Shown here: one piece after another, positions 1-9,000 of the stretch
How the letters are laid out: each line of letters starts with the position of its first letter
Numbering within the stretch: the first letter of the stretch is position 1
NCBI GenBank assembly: GCA_016208765.1
Contig: JACQXK010000065.1
Coordinates: 962 to 64,961 of the forward strand
DNA from: Candidatus Omnitrophota bacterium
Lineage (GTDB): Bacteria; Omnitrophota; Gorgyraeia; Gygaellales; Profunditerraquicolaceae
Length of the DNA: 64,000 nucleotides
Direction: 5' to 3'
Position numbers: made by a program

Positions 1-3000
1 ATAATCATTGGGATAATTTTGATTGGGAAAGAGATATTAAAAATGAAAACTTTCTCGTTTTTTATATTGATTTCACTATTGGTTGCTAGTTTATGTGAGA
101 AATTAATATTAATTACTATAATTTCCAATAAATCCTACTATCCGTTTCCTTTGCTGGGAAATTTCATTGGGATTTTTATTGATTTGTTTTTCATAATTTA
201 TCTATTGTATTTTACGGGAGAATTTCTAGGATATAATACGAGAGAATAAGGGATTTCTCAAACAATAAGGACCGTTTCCTTCTATCCATTTAACAGAGTA
301 AAAGTTATGGGGGGGGGGGTAATTACGGGGACACAATACTTAATCCTCCTAATTGAAATGTCCCGTAATCCAAGTTATCATACAACTTATTCAAAAAGGA
401 GCCCGAATGACAAATTTCTTAGTAAGGTGGGGAATAAATGCGATGTCAATTTTTGTTGTTGCCCACATTGTAAGAGGTATAGAGGTCTCAAGCACCCTGA
501 CTGTGCTGGTGATTGCTCTTGTGCTGGGGGTTATTAATGCTTTCTTGAGGCCGATAATTATTCTTGTTACTCTTCCAATCAATATCCTAACCTTAGGGAT
601 GTTCACTCTTTTTATAAACGGAGCCCTTTTTTATCTTGTATCTAAAATTGTTAAGGGTTTTGTGATCACAGGTTTCTGGCCGGCATTCTGGGGCTACATA
701 CTTTTTAGCATTATCAGCTTTTTATTGAATCTCTTGGTCAATTCTGTTTAGCTGCTCAAAATAGTGGCTGCCTACTTTTTCACATCTACGTTGGAGGAAG
801 TACTTTTCATTTTGACATAGGTTTATTGATTTTCCTATTGACATAATTTCATTACTCAATTAGTATAATGCCGTAATGCCTATTGAGAGAATAATTTGCA
901 TGATTTCCAGAGGACGAATCCTTAAGAAAAAGGGCTTCGTCCTATTTTTTTGTCTGCTGAGTTTCATGGCAGTATCTGTTCCTTCCTACGCAGTTTCTCC
1001 TGAAAATAATTCCTTGCTTGGTTCATGGTTAGCCCAAAAGGCCATGACAGGCGAATGGGGTGGCGCGCGAAACAAGCTTGCGAATAAAGGGGTTGATCTC
1101 TCTGCAAACTACACTACGGATATCGTAGGGAATCCTGCCGGAGGCTTAAGAAAAGGGGTAAATTACGCCGGTTTCCTGCAAGCCTCAGCAGCAATTGATT
1201 TTAATAAACTTGCTTCCTTGGCTGGTTGGGCCCTGACCGTAAGCAATTATCTTGCTTCTGGAAGAAATCTCTCCAATGAGATCGGTAATTTCTTCGGGCC
1301 ACAACAGATCTATGTTCCGGGAGATTATTATTTTGGGCAACTTGACCTTTCCTATACTTTCCCGGGTGATAAATTAATATTAGAAGGGGGCCGCCTTTTT
1401 GCCGGAGACGTTTTTGCCACTTTAGGCCTGTGGCAATACTATGTGAGCGGAGGCATTAACGGTAATCTAGTATCTATTTCCACTAACACCTTTTTTCCGA
1501 ACTTTCAGATCGCTACCTGGGGCGTGCGCGCCACTTATGAGCCGGACAAACATTGGAAGTTTTCTGCTGCCGCATATAATGCCAATCCTAAAGTAGCAGA
1601 TACTTTCAGGCACGGGCTTGATTTTAATTTCAGCACGGACCATGGCTGTTTGGGCATCACCCAGCTTACTTATAAACATCATCAGGAGAGAAACAGCGGC
1701 CTGCCGGGAAGCGCTACTCTTGGAGGCTATTATAATAGCGACACCTTCGCGGGTGTGGCAGAACCAACAAGGAAATGGAGCGGAAATTACGGTGTTTATT
1801 TTATAATTGACCAGATGATCTTTCGCGGGGAATGGCCTTCATTTTCAGGGCCGGCGCATTTAAGTTCTGAAGCCCGTTATTCAGAAAAAGTTAAACATGC
1901 TTATTACCGCCAGGTTGTTTCGCCTGTTGACCGGCCGGTAGGATTGTCTGTCTGGAGCGCAGTATATGCTGCTCCGCAGGAAAAAATTAACACTGAAGTC
2001 TACCAGTTTGCCGGAGGGCTGGTGTATCAGGGGATGTTTCCTAACCGCGACCGTGATGTTACAGCCTTCTGCGTTCTATACGGCAGGTTCAGCGATAAAT
2101 TACTCGGGCAGGAAGCAGAGACCGTGCTTGAGTTTAACCATCGTTTTCAGGTCGGGCAATGGTGCTACATCACTCCGGACTTCCAGTATATTTTTAATCT
2201 CAACGGACAGCATAATATTGATAACGCCGTAGTCTTAGGCGTGGAAGCCAGTTTTAATTTTTAGAAAGGGGCAATAGCAAATGAGAATAAAGCAGGCAAT
2301 ATTAATTTGTTTATCGGGGATTTTTGTCTTACTTTCCCTGATTTCATGCAAGAAGGCTCCTCCGTCGGTGGATATCAGCGCACCACTCTTGACTAACAAT
2401 CCTACCTGGGACATCGTCGCCACCAACAGGCAGCCCTTACTGACATTCTTTAACTCCAGGGGAGGCGTCGGAAAGCGAACCTATATAATCCAGCTTGATA
2501 CAAACGAAAACTTCAGCAGCCAGAACCTTATTCAATATAAAGACATTCCGGAAACCGACTTCTATACCACGCAAAAATTGGTTGAGGCGGACAATCCTCT
2601 TTTGGATGATGTCAGGTACTATTGGAGGGTGCGGGCAGTGGATTCCGTCGGGAATATCGGGCCTTGGGCAAAGTCGCGTTTTTTTGTGGATACTTCCTCG
2701 GATGACGCGTTTATGAATATGGTGAGGGTCCCGGTAAAAAATGTTGAGGTTTCAGGAGGGTCCAATCTTAAGAATATTACTGATATAGATGACCCCGGAC
2801 AGGTAAGTTTCTGGCAATCAACTCCTCCGGGTGAGCCTACCCAATGGGTCAAGTTTGAATTGGAGGATGAGGTAACTATTGCCAGGATCTGGATGCTTTC
2901 TAATACCGACGGTTCAGGGGATGGCTGGCTCAAGGATTTTGTTTGGCAGTTGAGTGCAGACGGGCAGAATTGGGATGACATTGATGGATCAGAAGTAGCG

Positions 3001-6000: not shown

Positions 6001-9000
6001 TTTACTTCCTTGATTGTTTTTGGTATTTTTACTCTGGGTGCTTTTTCCATATCCGCTATCATGCCGTATGCTGCAATCAATGTTGAATCAGGGCTTATTC
6101 AGGCTTTTGAGATGGCGTTTGCGCAATTTAATCTTTCATGGTGCGTGCCGATAATAGGGATCCTGATTATGTTCGGAGCCTTGGCAAGCGTAACCTCGTG
6201 GATCGTCGGCCCCAGCCGCGGCCTTTTGCAGACTGCTAAGGATCAACTCCTGCCTGGGTTCATGGCCAAGACCAACCAGCAGGGCATACAGGTTAACATT
6301 CTTATTGTTCAGGCGGTTATCGTTACTTTGCTTTCTTGCGTATATTTTATTTTTAAAAATGTAAGCGTGGCGTTTTTTCTTATCGGCGCAATGACGATTA
6401 CTTTATATCTTTTAATGTACGTGTTTATGTATGCCGCCGGTATTCGCCTGCGTTATACCCGGCCGGATATGCCCAGAAGGTTCCGGGTTCCCGGAGGCTT
6501 GATAGGGATGTGGTGCATAGGGGTATTGGGTTTGTCCGGGGTTATTTTTTCTTTTATCGTGGCTTTCTTTCCTCCGGCGCAGCTTCCGGTGGGTAATCCT
6601 GCGATGTATGTAATCTTAGTAACCATCGGAACAGTAGTTTTTAGTATCGTTCCGTTTTTTATCAAGGGCGCCAAGAGTAGAGCAAAATAATCTTATTTAT
6701 GCATTTTTATTGACAAATTTATTGGAAATGCTATGCTCTCTAATTAGAGAGTGAGGGCAGTAAGTATTTCTAATATCTACTTAATCAAAGACTTAGCTCG
6801 TATTAGCAACAACTCCATCCATACAGTAAAATACTACCTTAAAATTGGTTTAATCAAAGAAGCCGGCCGCAGCCCGGAAACTAATTATCGTTATTTTGAT
6901 GATTCAACAGTAGAGAAATTAAAATTTATCCGCAGTCGGCGTAAAGAAAAAAAATCCATCAAAGAGATCAGGCATGAGTTATTATAAAGTATTAGGTTTA
7001 GAAAAAGAGCCATTTTCTACAAGCCCGGACCCTGAGTTTTTTTATCACTCAACCAGCCATTATGCCGCTCTTAACCGCCTTGAAATTGCTATCCGTCTGC
7101 GTCGGGGATTATGCCTTATTTTAGGAGATGTGGGAACAGGGAAAACCACGCTTTCCCGCGCGCTCTTGCAGGCATTTAAAGATGAAGACAATTTTATTTT
7201 TCATATGATACTTGATCCCAGCCACAAAACGGAATATCAGTTTTTGCAGGGGCTGGTTAAAATGTTCGGGATTGATACTTCTTTCAATTCTACTATTGAT
7301 TTTAAGGAGGCCCTGGAAAAATATCTTTTTCAAAAAGGCGTTGAAGAAAAGAAAAATATTGTTTTATTGATTGATGAAGGGCAGAAAATCAATCTTGAAA
7401 ACCTGGAAGTTTTAAGGACGCTTTTAAATTTTGAAACCAATGAATATAAATTGCTCCAAGTTGTGATTATGGCTCAGATGGAACTTATTCCTCGCATAAA
7501 AAAAGTGCGCAACTTTCTTGACAGGGTGGTTTTAAAATATACAATTAATCCTCTGGATGAAAAGGAAACGCGCGAGCTGATTGATTTTCGTCTGCATCAA
7601 GCCGGGTATAGCGGGCATAAAAATTTATTTAACGATGATGCGGTCAGGTTGATTTATCAGCAATCTAAAGGTTATCCCCGCAGGATCTGCATGCTTTGCC
7701 ATGACGCACTGGTAACTGCGGTAATGCAGAAGCGCTTGGTAATTGATGCCGATTTAATAATGGGGCTGATTTCTCAAGAGGTTGGTTTATGAAAACCAAA
7801 AATTATTCATCTCCGGAAGAGCAGCTATTAAAGCTCATACGAGGCAACAAAAAAAACAACCATCCGCAGCAGAATGCCTGCGGAGTTATTAATAACCGGC
7901 ATGGGTGGAATACTAAAATTTACCGTAGTTTTTTTACCGCGAAATTAATTCCAAGTTTTAGTTTAAAGAAACTGGTTTTGGTTTTTCTTTTTTTGGCTTG
8001 TGTTTATTTACTAAGTTCTTTGGCCTATCCTTTTGTTTCGCTCGGCAGGTTAAAAGTACCGGTAGTAATGAAAGAGAATGTTGAATTAAGCCAAGTGCAG
8101 GACAAAGAAGAAAACAAGCCTTATGAGCATTATTTAAGTGCTATGCAGGGTAAGAAGATTTTTGTTTCTGCGGAGAACCTTGCTTCTGAGCGCGTGCAAA
8201 TTGCAACTGCAGGCAGTTTGGATATTAAAGATATAACCCTTACCGGGATTATTTCCGGAGATAATCCTCAGGCGGTAGTTGAGGACAAAAAGAATCAAAA
8301 AACATATTATTTCAATAAGGGCCAGTTGTTTGGAGATATTCAGGTTGAGGATATTCAGGAAGGTAAAATTATCTTAAAACAAAATAACCAGCTTTACGAA
8401 CTTTATTTATAAAATGGAAAAATACGACTACGACGCAATAATTATTGGAGCAGGGATTGGCGGTTTGGTTTGTGGCTGTTATTTGGCAAAAGCCGGCCTC
8501 AAGACGCTGATTGTGGAGAAGAATTCCCAGCCCGGTGGTTACTGTACATCTTTTGCCCGTAGTGGTTTTAAGTTTGATGCTTGCGGGCATTCTTTGGGAA
8601 GCTTGCGAAATGGGGGAAATATCTCTAATATTCTTAGGGAGTTAAATTTACATAGGAAAATGAAATTTATTCGGCATGATCCACAAGATACTATTATTAC
8701 CTCCGAAGGGGATATTCATTTTTGGAACGATTTAAATAAAACGATGCGGGAATTTAAGGTAAAATTTCCCAAGGAAGCTTCTAATATTAAAAGGTTTTTT
8801 GCATTCTTAAATAATTGTGAGGGTTTTTCTTTTAATGAATTGCGCCACTGTACTTTTAAAGATTGGCTTGATAAATATTTTGAGGATACTAGATTAAAGT
8901 CTATTTTGTCTTTGCTTATTCTTGGGAATGTTGGGGCTCCTGCTTCCGAGGTTTCTGCTTTTACCGCAGTTACAGTGTATAAGGAATTTACTCTTGATGG

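Follow-up and report, generated by a model that had tools for sequence, protein, structure and literature searches.

An exported class-I amidotransferase-fold lipoprotein linked to glutamate decarboxylase and GadC-like antiporter genes in Omnitrophota and other phyla: a putative outside-to-inside glutamate decarboxylation cycle

In the glutaminase-dependent Gad system (AR2_Q), glutamine deamidase genes of the glsA/ybaS (gls3) type adjoin gadBC, an arrangement described from Brucella microti, many enterics, Bacteroides and Lactobacillus reuteri (PMC6250119, PMC5695133, PMC3231934). The known deamidase-GadBC systems are all of the cytoplasmic GlsA type, come mostly from gut bacteria and are well studied for acid survival and for the production of gamma-aminobutyric acid (GABA). 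Periplasmic deamidation of glutamine followed by uptake of the glutamate is known from GGT in Campylobacter jejuni and Helicobacter pylori and from AnsB in Pseudomonas (PMC4178425, PMC7962211), and the chlamydial aaxABC genes form a porin-decarboxylase-antiporter operon for arginine:agmatine exchange (PMC2720952). Here we analyze a stretch of 64,000 nucleotides, hereafter the window, from a Candidatus Omnitrophota bacterium (assembly GCA_016208765.1, contig JACQXK010000065.1, positions 962 to 64,961), in which a GC-rich block at window positions 876-6690 encodes an OprB-family porin, a lipoprotein with a class-I glutamine amidotransferase (GATase) domain, a GadB-like glutamate decarboxylase (GAD) and a GadC-like antiporter. 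With moderate confidence, we favor the reading that these four genes are an operon whose products would carry out an outside-to-inside glutamate decarboxylation cycle, and that the block probably entered this genome fairly recently from a relative within the Omnitrophota that is richer in GC.

The four genes are all located on the plus strand in the order given above and are separated by gaps of 16, 5 and 46 nt. The porin (462 aa; 876..2264) matched the whole PF04966 profile (E 2.1e-41) and is followed by the lipoprotein (503 aa; 2281..3792), the pyridoxal phosphate-dependent GAD (468 aa; 3798..5204), which scored 675 bits against TIGR01788 (cutoff 380), and the APC-superfamily antiporter (479 aa; 5251..6690), which matched Pfam AA_permease_2 (E 1e-55). 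These profile searches bore out the four gene identities assigned in an earlier, sequence-only reading of this DNA. AG-rich motifs resembling Shine-Dalgarno sequences precede the second, third and fourth genes, most clearly those for GAD and GadC, and directly 5' of the first gene a sigma-70-like promoter candidate, TTGACA-17 nt-TAGTAT (838..866, plus strand), matches the consensus at 10 of 12 positions, by consensus match only. The layout is that of a single operon, with a putative promoter of its own at one end and the stop codon of the GadC-like gene at the other. Since the promoter candidate ends only 10 nt ahead of the porin ATG at 876, the real start of the porin may be the ATG at 900, from which the N-terminus reads as a typical signal peptide (...VPSYA↓VSPE). 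Orthologues of the porin (52-65% identity) head the same operon in six further Omnitrophota loci.

Like AR2_Q, the locus combines a predicted deamidase gene with genes for a GAD and a Glu/GABA-type antiporter, and the same glutamine-to-glutamate-to-GABA logic, with release of ammonia and consumption of protons, would apply; moreover, its GAD is a close GadB homologue with a C-terminal His tail. The position of the GATase-fold lipoprotein gene directly upstream of the GAD gene, with a gap of 5 nt, and the adjacency to Gad genes in 41 of 67 loci encoding the lipoprotein family resemble AR2_Q by analogy, not by homology. Unlike in AR2_Q, the putative deamidase is a class-I triad GATase fold fused to Ig-like and CBM32 domains rather than a GlsA, and its export signal would make hydrolysis extracytoplasmic; in addition, the antiporter is devoid of a C-plug, the operon contains an outer-membrane porin, and the carriers are environmental anaerobes and symbionts. 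With the GGT and AnsB systems the locus would share the periplasmic breakdown of glutamine into glutamate plus ammonia and the import of glutamate by a dedicated transporter, as proposed here. However, those enzymes have unrelated folds (Ntn-hydrolase and type II asparaginase, respectively), and their product enters catabolism via ABC or GltS-type transporters without a decarboxylase/antiporter cycle. The aaxABC operon is likewise an analogue of which this locus is not a member: in both, the porin gene comes first and is co-oriented with genes for an amino acid decarboxylase and an APC substrate/product antiporter, whereas aaxABC acts on arginine and agmatine with a pyruvoyl-dependent decarboxylase and includes no extracytoplasmic substrate-converting enzyme. 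AaxA, too, is classed in the OprB family. Finally, fold, elbow and Cys-His-Glu triad are shared with the GATases of GMP synthase, PabA and TrpG and with the stand-alone enzymes PuuD/SpuA, GGP1 and gamma-glutamyl hydrolase, yet unlike class-I GATases the lipoprotein is exported, lipid-anchored, fused to Ig-like and CBM32 domains and without a synthase partner. All components thus have precedents, and their combination appears to be new. The module would work like the glutaminase-dependent Gad and the periplasmic deamidation-uptake systems but belongs to neither, because its predicted deamidase is not of the cytoplasmic GlsA type, its antiporter has no C-plug and scores below the cutoffs of the GadC models, and the fold of its enzyme differs from those of GGT and AnsB. 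In line with this, full-text literature searches returned no published description of the lipoprotein family or of its association with GAD and GadC, and nothing relevant on Omnitrophota or Anoxychlamydiales in connection with glutamate or glutamate decarboxylase, so that the earlier claim of an undescribed arrangement holds as far as these searches extend.

The lipoprotein carries a canonical signal peptidase II (SPII) signal with the lipobox LIS↓C23 (N-terminal sequence MRIKQAILICLSGIFVLLSLIS↓C23), followed by an Ig-like domain (residues ~30-140), a CBM32/F5-8 type C domain (162-269; F5/8 type C profile, E 3e-15), a Pro-rich linker and a class-I triad GATase domain (~293-500), which matched PF00117 above the cutoff (E 1.6e-18, 67.5 bits). 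A profile search of the PDB grouped this C-terminal domain with GMP synthase subunit A, PabA and TrpG (E 6.5e-22), and a Foldseek comparison with amidotransferase domains gave target-normalised TM-scores of 0.73-0.81, while the similarity to the structures of GGP1, SpuA and GGH was lower. The AF2 model of the protein was confident (pLDDT 91, pTM 0.87), and its three-domain architecture was not found among solved structures in our structure searches. Alignment with the GATase elbow of M. jannaschii GMP synthase places the predicted nucleophile at Cys381 (codon 3421..3423, plus strand) in a G-I-C-C-G-H-Q elbow, and the motif QFHAE, which contains the predicted triad residues His474 and Glu476 (His474-Ala475-Glu476 codons 3700..3708, plus strand), aligns with QFHPE of the same enzyme. 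Among 29 diverse homologues the elbow residues G379, I380, C381, G383, H384 and Q385 were invariant, as were Q472, F473, H474 and E476 and the His that matches the GuaA 'SH' strand; much of both the Ig-like and the CBM32 domain was invariant as well. An identity as a DJ-1/PfpI-type or non-catalytic GATase-like protein, on which the enzymatic part of the sequence-only reading hinged, is ruled out by the above-cutoff PF00117 score, the invariant Cys-His-Glu triad and the lack of any DJ-1/PfpI match at E ≤0.01. That reading had also placed the lipoprotein at the cell surface. The canonical lipobox agrees with its export, but demonstrates export and lipid anchoring without establishing surface exposure, and a periplasmic location is the safer reading.

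Proteins with CBM32 and Ig-like domains are typically extracytoplasmic. In agreement with such a location, units homologous to the Ig-like domain of the lipoprotein (window 2368-2700) are repeated 5-36 times in giant proteins of 2000-6000 aa from a library of 1.84 billion proteins. GATase subunits such as GMP synthase subunit A, PabA and TrpG usually show little activity when the synthase partner is missing. No acceptor or synthase partner of the lipoprotein was found, either as a fused domain or as a recurrent neighbor in the 67 loci, and an ATP-dependent synthase would not be expected outside the cytoplasm; the fused N-terminal Ig-like and CBM32 domains may stand in for such an activating partner.

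The functional tie of the lipoprotein to GadB and GadC, which had been proposed from this one locus, is strongly backed by a gene neighborhood that is conserved across many phyla. A scan of one genome per species gave 546 relatives of the lipoprotein, of which the best 80 loci were kept (numbered with the prefix L); the first 67 of these encode the full family. When these 67 loci were searched by tblastn with the window proteins, a GadC-like gene was detected in 40, a GAD gene in 31 and at least one of the two in 41, and many of the loci without a Gad gene are situated on short contigs. Among the 36 loci flanked on each side by 3.5 kb or more, a GadC-like gene lay within four genes of the lipoprotein gene in 22 and a GAD gene as well in 18, although this scoring of neighbors relied on our own open reading frame (ORF) calls, by which at least L027 and L034 were misclassified. 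The Pfam families of the 114 immediate neighbors included AA_permease_2 (21), Pyridoxal_deC (12), OprB (6), Rrf2 (6), SSF (4), MFS (3) and CitMHS (1). Neither the operon, nor the neighbor clusters, nor the 25 commonest Pfam families of these 114 neighbors contained a GlsA/YbaS-type glutaminase.

At least six gene arrangements occur among the loci. If the lipoprotein gene is abbreviated as LGAT, the order is OprB-LGAT-GAD-GadC in Omnitrophota, LGAT-GadC-GAD in Bacteroidota, Solidesulfovibrio and a mixed group, and GadC-GAD-LGAT in Chlamydiota and Desulfarculaceae; in the candidate phyla radiation (CPR), GAD/GadC are divergent from LGAT or, at two loci, three tandem GadC-like genes lie upstream of LGAT without a GAD gene, and in the sixth arrangement LGAT is followed by a divergent GAD-GadC pair. 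The Gad partners also belong to distinct lineages, with 33-84% (GadC) and 48-85% (GAD) identity to the window proteins. Because the linkage persists through rearrangement and partner exchange, it provides strong evidence, at the level of gene order, for a functional connection between the lipoprotein and GadC/GAD. Where Gad genes were not detected, the co-directional gene downstream of the lipoprotein gene often encodes another inner-membrane transporter (MFS in L008, L010 and L015; CitMHS in L042), which fits an enzyme with an imported product.

Several further features of these neighborhoods were observed. In seven Bacteroidota loci (L032, L037, L038, L041, L043, L054, L064) a gene for a TonB-dependent receptor, which may correspond to the porin of the Omnitrophota, is located immediately upstream of lipoprotein-GadC-GAD, and in six of the seven a gene for an Rrf2-family regulator lies between the receptor and lipoprotein genes. 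Two loci of the Patescibacteria type (L012:3712-9407 and L017:1717-9416), in which three paralogous GadC-like genes lie upstream of a lipoprotein homologue that has no signal, with no GAD within 8 kb, differ in spacing: the paralogues directly adjoin the lipoprotein homologue in L012 and are found ~2 kb upstream in L017, with two opposite-strand ORFs between. In two other Omnitrophota an exported Ntn linear-amide hydrolase of the choloylglycine-hydrolase family (PF02275), in which the Ntn Cys comes directly after a signal peptide, is encoded next to the module (L016:5346-6476 and L002:6435-7550), upstream of the porin gene in one and downstream of the GadC gene in the other. The window contains no homologue of this hydrolase, whose position beside the module hints at amide-conjugate substrates.

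The 67 loci come from Omnitrophota, several orders of Desulfobacterota, Chlamydiota (Anoxychlamydiales, Parachlamydiales), Bacteroidota, Ignavibacteria, CPR/Saccharibacteria, Aerophobetes, Bdellovibrio-like metagenome-assembled genomes (MAGs) and others, and their lipoproteins are 41-76% identical to the window protein. By record titles, the carriers are MAGs of groundwater, sediment, anoxic water column and symbionts; Solidesulfovibrio magneticus str. Maddingley, by its name a cultured carrier, is among the loci, and the two Solidesulfovibrio records with a complete set of lipoprotein, GadC and GAD genes are both flagged as MAGs. An NCBI entry 100% identical to the window lipoprotein exists, also from a MAG, and the databases name the family by domain only. 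The full-length family forms ~12 clusters among 1.84 billion representatives clustered at 50% identity and is therefore compact and slowly evolving. When full-length homologues were screened with a simple in-house hydrophobicity/lipobox criterion, 90 of 106 showed a hydrophobic signal at the N-terminus, accompanied in 26 of them by a lipobox.

The window GAD aligned with E. coli GadB (1pmm) over the full length (637 bits), and its C-terminus ...GGFKHS aligns with ...SFKHT of the E. coli enzyme, so that the penultimate His is kept. In E. coli GadB this residue, His465, forms an inactivating aldamine above ~pH 5.5 and closes the active site (PMC4382515). A different C-terminus was observed for GADs that adjoin the lipoprotein gene in L005, L007, L009, L059, L063 and L066, which have a C-terminal Cys (..RVRC, ..RKHC, ..HKIC) in place of the GadB-type penultimate His, and this may represent a different means of active-site closure. 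The best-scoring NCBIfam models of the antiporter, NF053662 (421 bits) and TIGR03813 (416 bits), describe Glu/GABA and Gln/GABA exchangers, but both scores are below the respective cutoffs of 640 and 650. Among proteins of solved structure, the antiporter is closest to E. coli GadC (4dji; 205 bits), with an alignment that covers residues 10-466 of the latter's 511. The last 41 residues of E. coli GadC constitute the C-plug, the pH gate of transport (PMC4382515), and this element is missing from the window antiporter, which continues for only ~5 residues past the aligned region; the GadC-like family as a whole has a median length of 473 aa compared with 511 aa for E. coli GadC.

According to the proposed mechanism, the porin would pass the substrate across the outer membrane and let GABA out, and in the periplasm the lipid-anchored enzyme would use its Cys381-His474-Glu476 triad to hydrolyze a gamma-glutamyl amide, most likely free L-glutamine, to L-glutamate and ammonia (or an amine). 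The GadC-like antiporter would then import glutamate in exchange for GABA, while the GadB-like enzyme would decarboxylate glutamate to GABA with the use of one cytoplasmic proton per turn. The predicted net effect is an alkalinisation of cytoplasm and periplasm, the latter buffered by the ammonia released outside the cytoplasm, together with an electrogenic exchange that would generate a membrane potential and a delta-pH, i.e. a proton motive force, so that the cycle may serve pH homeostasis and/or energy conservation. Generation of a proton motive force by Glu/GABA antiport has been described (PMC3231934). The acid-resistance role suggested in the sequence-only reading is uncertain. Since the antiporter lacks the plug and the carriers, judged by record titles, are not enteric, energy or pH homeostasis at mild pH appears at least as likely as enteric-style resistance to extreme acid, even though the GAD retains its acid-switch tail.

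The compositional anomaly claimed for the block is borne out by the GC profile and by the GC content at third codon positions (GC3) of all ORFs in the window. The GC content is 46.8% across 876-6690, 39.3% in the remaining 58 kb and ~40% overall, and no other 5.8-kb stretch of the window exceeds 41.5%. The four genes have 45.1-50.0% GC (z 2.9-5.3) and 45.4-53.7% GC3 and thereby each surpass all of the other 44 ORFs, which reach at most 43.3% GC and 43.5% GC3, in both measures; taken together, GC3 is 0.489 in the block and 0.373 in the rest of the 64 kb, which served as host sequence in this comparison. The flanks are indeed poor in GC, although the earlier figure of ~36% is somewhat low, with the immediate flanks at 34-41% and a window mean of 39%. 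In contrast, acquisition from a foreign high-GC lineage, as originally envisaged, is not needed to account for the anomaly: the nearest relatives of all four proteins are encoded in other Omnitrophota, and a donor from a distant high-GC phylum is unsupported. Three loci with all four genes, at 44-51% GC, encode proteins with identities to the window proteins of 63-65% (OprB), 71-76% (lipoprotein), 81-85% (GAD) and 75-84% (GadC). The window lipoprotein clusters with Omnitrophota loci in this GC range, in a tree that for the most part reflects phylum-level groups. The genes next to the module in other Omnitrophota differ from those in the window. Conversely, the MerR-ExeA-T2SSC cluster downstream of the block is kept in ~35 metagenome loci (ExeA 60-77% identical), none of which has the module upstream, and an exact empty site was not found among metagenome contigs with an ExeA-like protein, on which the gene upstream of the block in the window is not conserved. 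When 29 related loci were compared, the GC3 of the module rose with that of its host over a range of 0.17 to 0.85 and exceeded it by only +0.034 on average, and the composition is therefore not intrinsic to the module genes. The window copy, with an excess of +0.115 that is surpassed in only 2 of the 29 other loci, looks incompletely adapted to its host. On the basis of these comparisons a fairly recent acquisition of the block is plausible, the donor most likely being another member of the phylum with a higher GC content.

Other genes of the window were noted in passing. A 78-aa MerR-family ORF (6751-6987) overlaps the start of the ExeA-like ATPase gene. Two tandem, apparently paralogous ORFs of 476 and 471 aa (8414-11240) follow the genes resembling those of type II secretion systems (T2SS) and are themselves followed by a 7TM-GAF histidine kinase gene; the first scans as FAD amine-oxidase/phytoene-desaturase-like, and the second looks similar to it by N-terminal sequence only. 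A secretin (14565-16493; PF00263, Secretin_N, STN) has an unusual fusion to a C-terminal TonB_C domain. Nearly all ORFs of at least 150 aa in window 1-64000 are on the plus strand and the GC skew is positive throughout, so that this long co-oriented stretch presumably belongs to the leading strand.

A number of observations count against the cycle and the acquisition as proposed here. The nearest characterised relatives of the lipoprotein are amidotransferase subunits, and no synthase partner is encoded nearby. An activity restricted to free glutamine leaves the very high conservation of the Ig-like and CBM32 domains unexplained. As 16 of the 106 homologues, mostly of the CPR/Patescibacteria type, have no signal peptide, and the one in L012 has no room for one, extracytoplasmic action is not universal in the family, and since ~40% of the lipoprotein loci are free of Gad genes over a distance of 8 kb, the enzyme is not confined to Gad systems. 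Furthermore, E. coli GadC itself can import glutamine (PMC6250119), and external deamidation is therefore not strictly needed. With regard to the origin of the block, its GC excess could stem in part from amino acid composition or codon bias, the modules of other genomes also being slightly GC3-richer than their flanks, and the site bears no marks of mobility: the 64-kb window contains no tRNA genes, only short, chance-level repeats flank 876-6690, and neither integrase nor transposase genes were seen among the annotated flanking ORFs.

Some of these observations would be explained if the lipoprotein were instead a gamma-glutamyl hydrolase or peptidase of the Peptidase C26 type, targeted by its CBM32 and Ig-like domains, that releases glutamate from conjugates or polymers of the gamma-glutamyl type (e.g. 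gamma-glutamyl peptides or amines, glutathione-type compounds or poly-gamma-glutamate) and still feeds GadC and GAD. Such an activity is as compatible with the GATase fold as that of a glutaminase, the fused binding module and the near-invariance of the protein over its entire length suggest that the substrate is larger or anchored, one NCBI record calls a homologue a 'C26 family cysteine hydrolase', and the exported Ntn linear-amide hydrolase beside the module in two Omnitrophota loci points in the same direction. PF07722 (Peptidase_C26) also matched at 30.4 bits (cutoff 20.5), although only over its C-terminal half (profile positions 103-219 of 219), and both sequence (67.5 bits for PF00117) and fold are nearer to the glutamine-hydrolyzing domains of the GuaA/PabA type. 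Since, in addition, CBM32 modules bind sugars rather than gamma-glutamyl chains and the loci suggest no nameable candidate substrate, we consider this alternative unlikely. A non-metabolic role of the lipoprotein, as a glycan-binding envelope protein or as a periplasmic stress protein or chaperone with an HdeA-like function that merely travels with transporter genes, could accommodate the loci without Gad genes and the fact that two of its three domains are binding modules, and genes for periplasmic chaperones of the hdeA type do occur inside gadBC-glsA clusters (PMC6250119). Yet the elbow, the His, the Glu and the Gln of the glutamine pocket are invariant across phyla, as one would expect if the protein is a functional hydrolase, there was no match to a DJ-1/PfpI or chaperone family, and the neighbors are enriched specifically for glutamate-handling genes and transporters, all of which makes such a role very improbable.

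For the block as a whole, an enteric-type island for resistance to extreme acid, i.e. an AR2_Q analogue from a foreign high-GC donor with a surface glutaminase that is switched on only at low pH, would be consistent with the real GC and GC3 anomaly, with the F-K-H tail of the GAD that auto-inhibits E. coli GadB above ~pH 5.5, and with the status of deamidase-gadBC clusters as established acid-resistance units (PMC6250119, PMC5695133). We regard it as improbable in view of the antiporter, which at 479 aa has, like its family, no C-plug and thus no acid gate of the E. coli type (PMC4382515), and of carriers that, by record titles, are MAGs of groundwater, sediment, anoxic water and symbionts and not acid-exposed enterics; moreover, all four genes are closest to those of other Omnitrophota, and a lipobox does not prove surface exposure. 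The opposite possibility, namely that the block is not a recent acquisition and owes its GC content to the amino acid composition or codon preference of four conserved, highly expressed genes, deserves somewhat more weight but is still rather unlikely. It agrees with the lack of tRNA gene, repeats and mobility genes at the block and with the higher GC3 of the module relative to its flanks in 23 of the 29 other loci (where GC at codon positions 1 and 2 is also higher, by a mean of +0.012), and codon bias is thus a partial alternative to acquisition. However, the excess in the window is more than three times the usual one, module GC3 follows that of the host over the entire range, and the module is missing upstream of MerR-ExeA-T2SSC in the ~35 related loci.

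Compared with the deamidase-GadBC systems known to date, the predicted deamidase of the Omnitrophota operon has a different fold, is predicted to act outside the cytoplasm and is linked to GadC/GAD in at least 10 phylum-level groups of largely uncultured anaerobes and symbionts. More tentatively than for the operon itself, we suggest that these proteins with discoidin and GATase domains constitute an unrecognised, phylum-spanning family of exported, partner-independent triad GATases that act as periplasmic glutaminases dedicated to transporters, chiefly Glu/GABA antiporters. They would then represent, after GlsA and GGT/AnsB, a third non-homologous solution for channeling external glutamine into a proton-consuming, membrane-energising decarboxylation, and its users would be anaerobes, predators and symbionts (Omnitrophota, Anoxychlamydiales, CPR, Bdellovibrio-like bacteria and sulfate reducers) that draw on glutamine from the environment or from hosts for energy or pH homeostasis. 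If this is true, many database entries named 'discoidin domain-containing protein' or 'GMP synthase-like amidotransferase' would gain a function, bacterial triad GATase domains would be found to act as exported, partner-free hydrolases, and the four genes would provide a simple cassette for the production of GABA from glutamine. Likewise, amino acid decarboxylation cycles would emerge as a common energy or pH device in host-dependent, energy-limited lineages.

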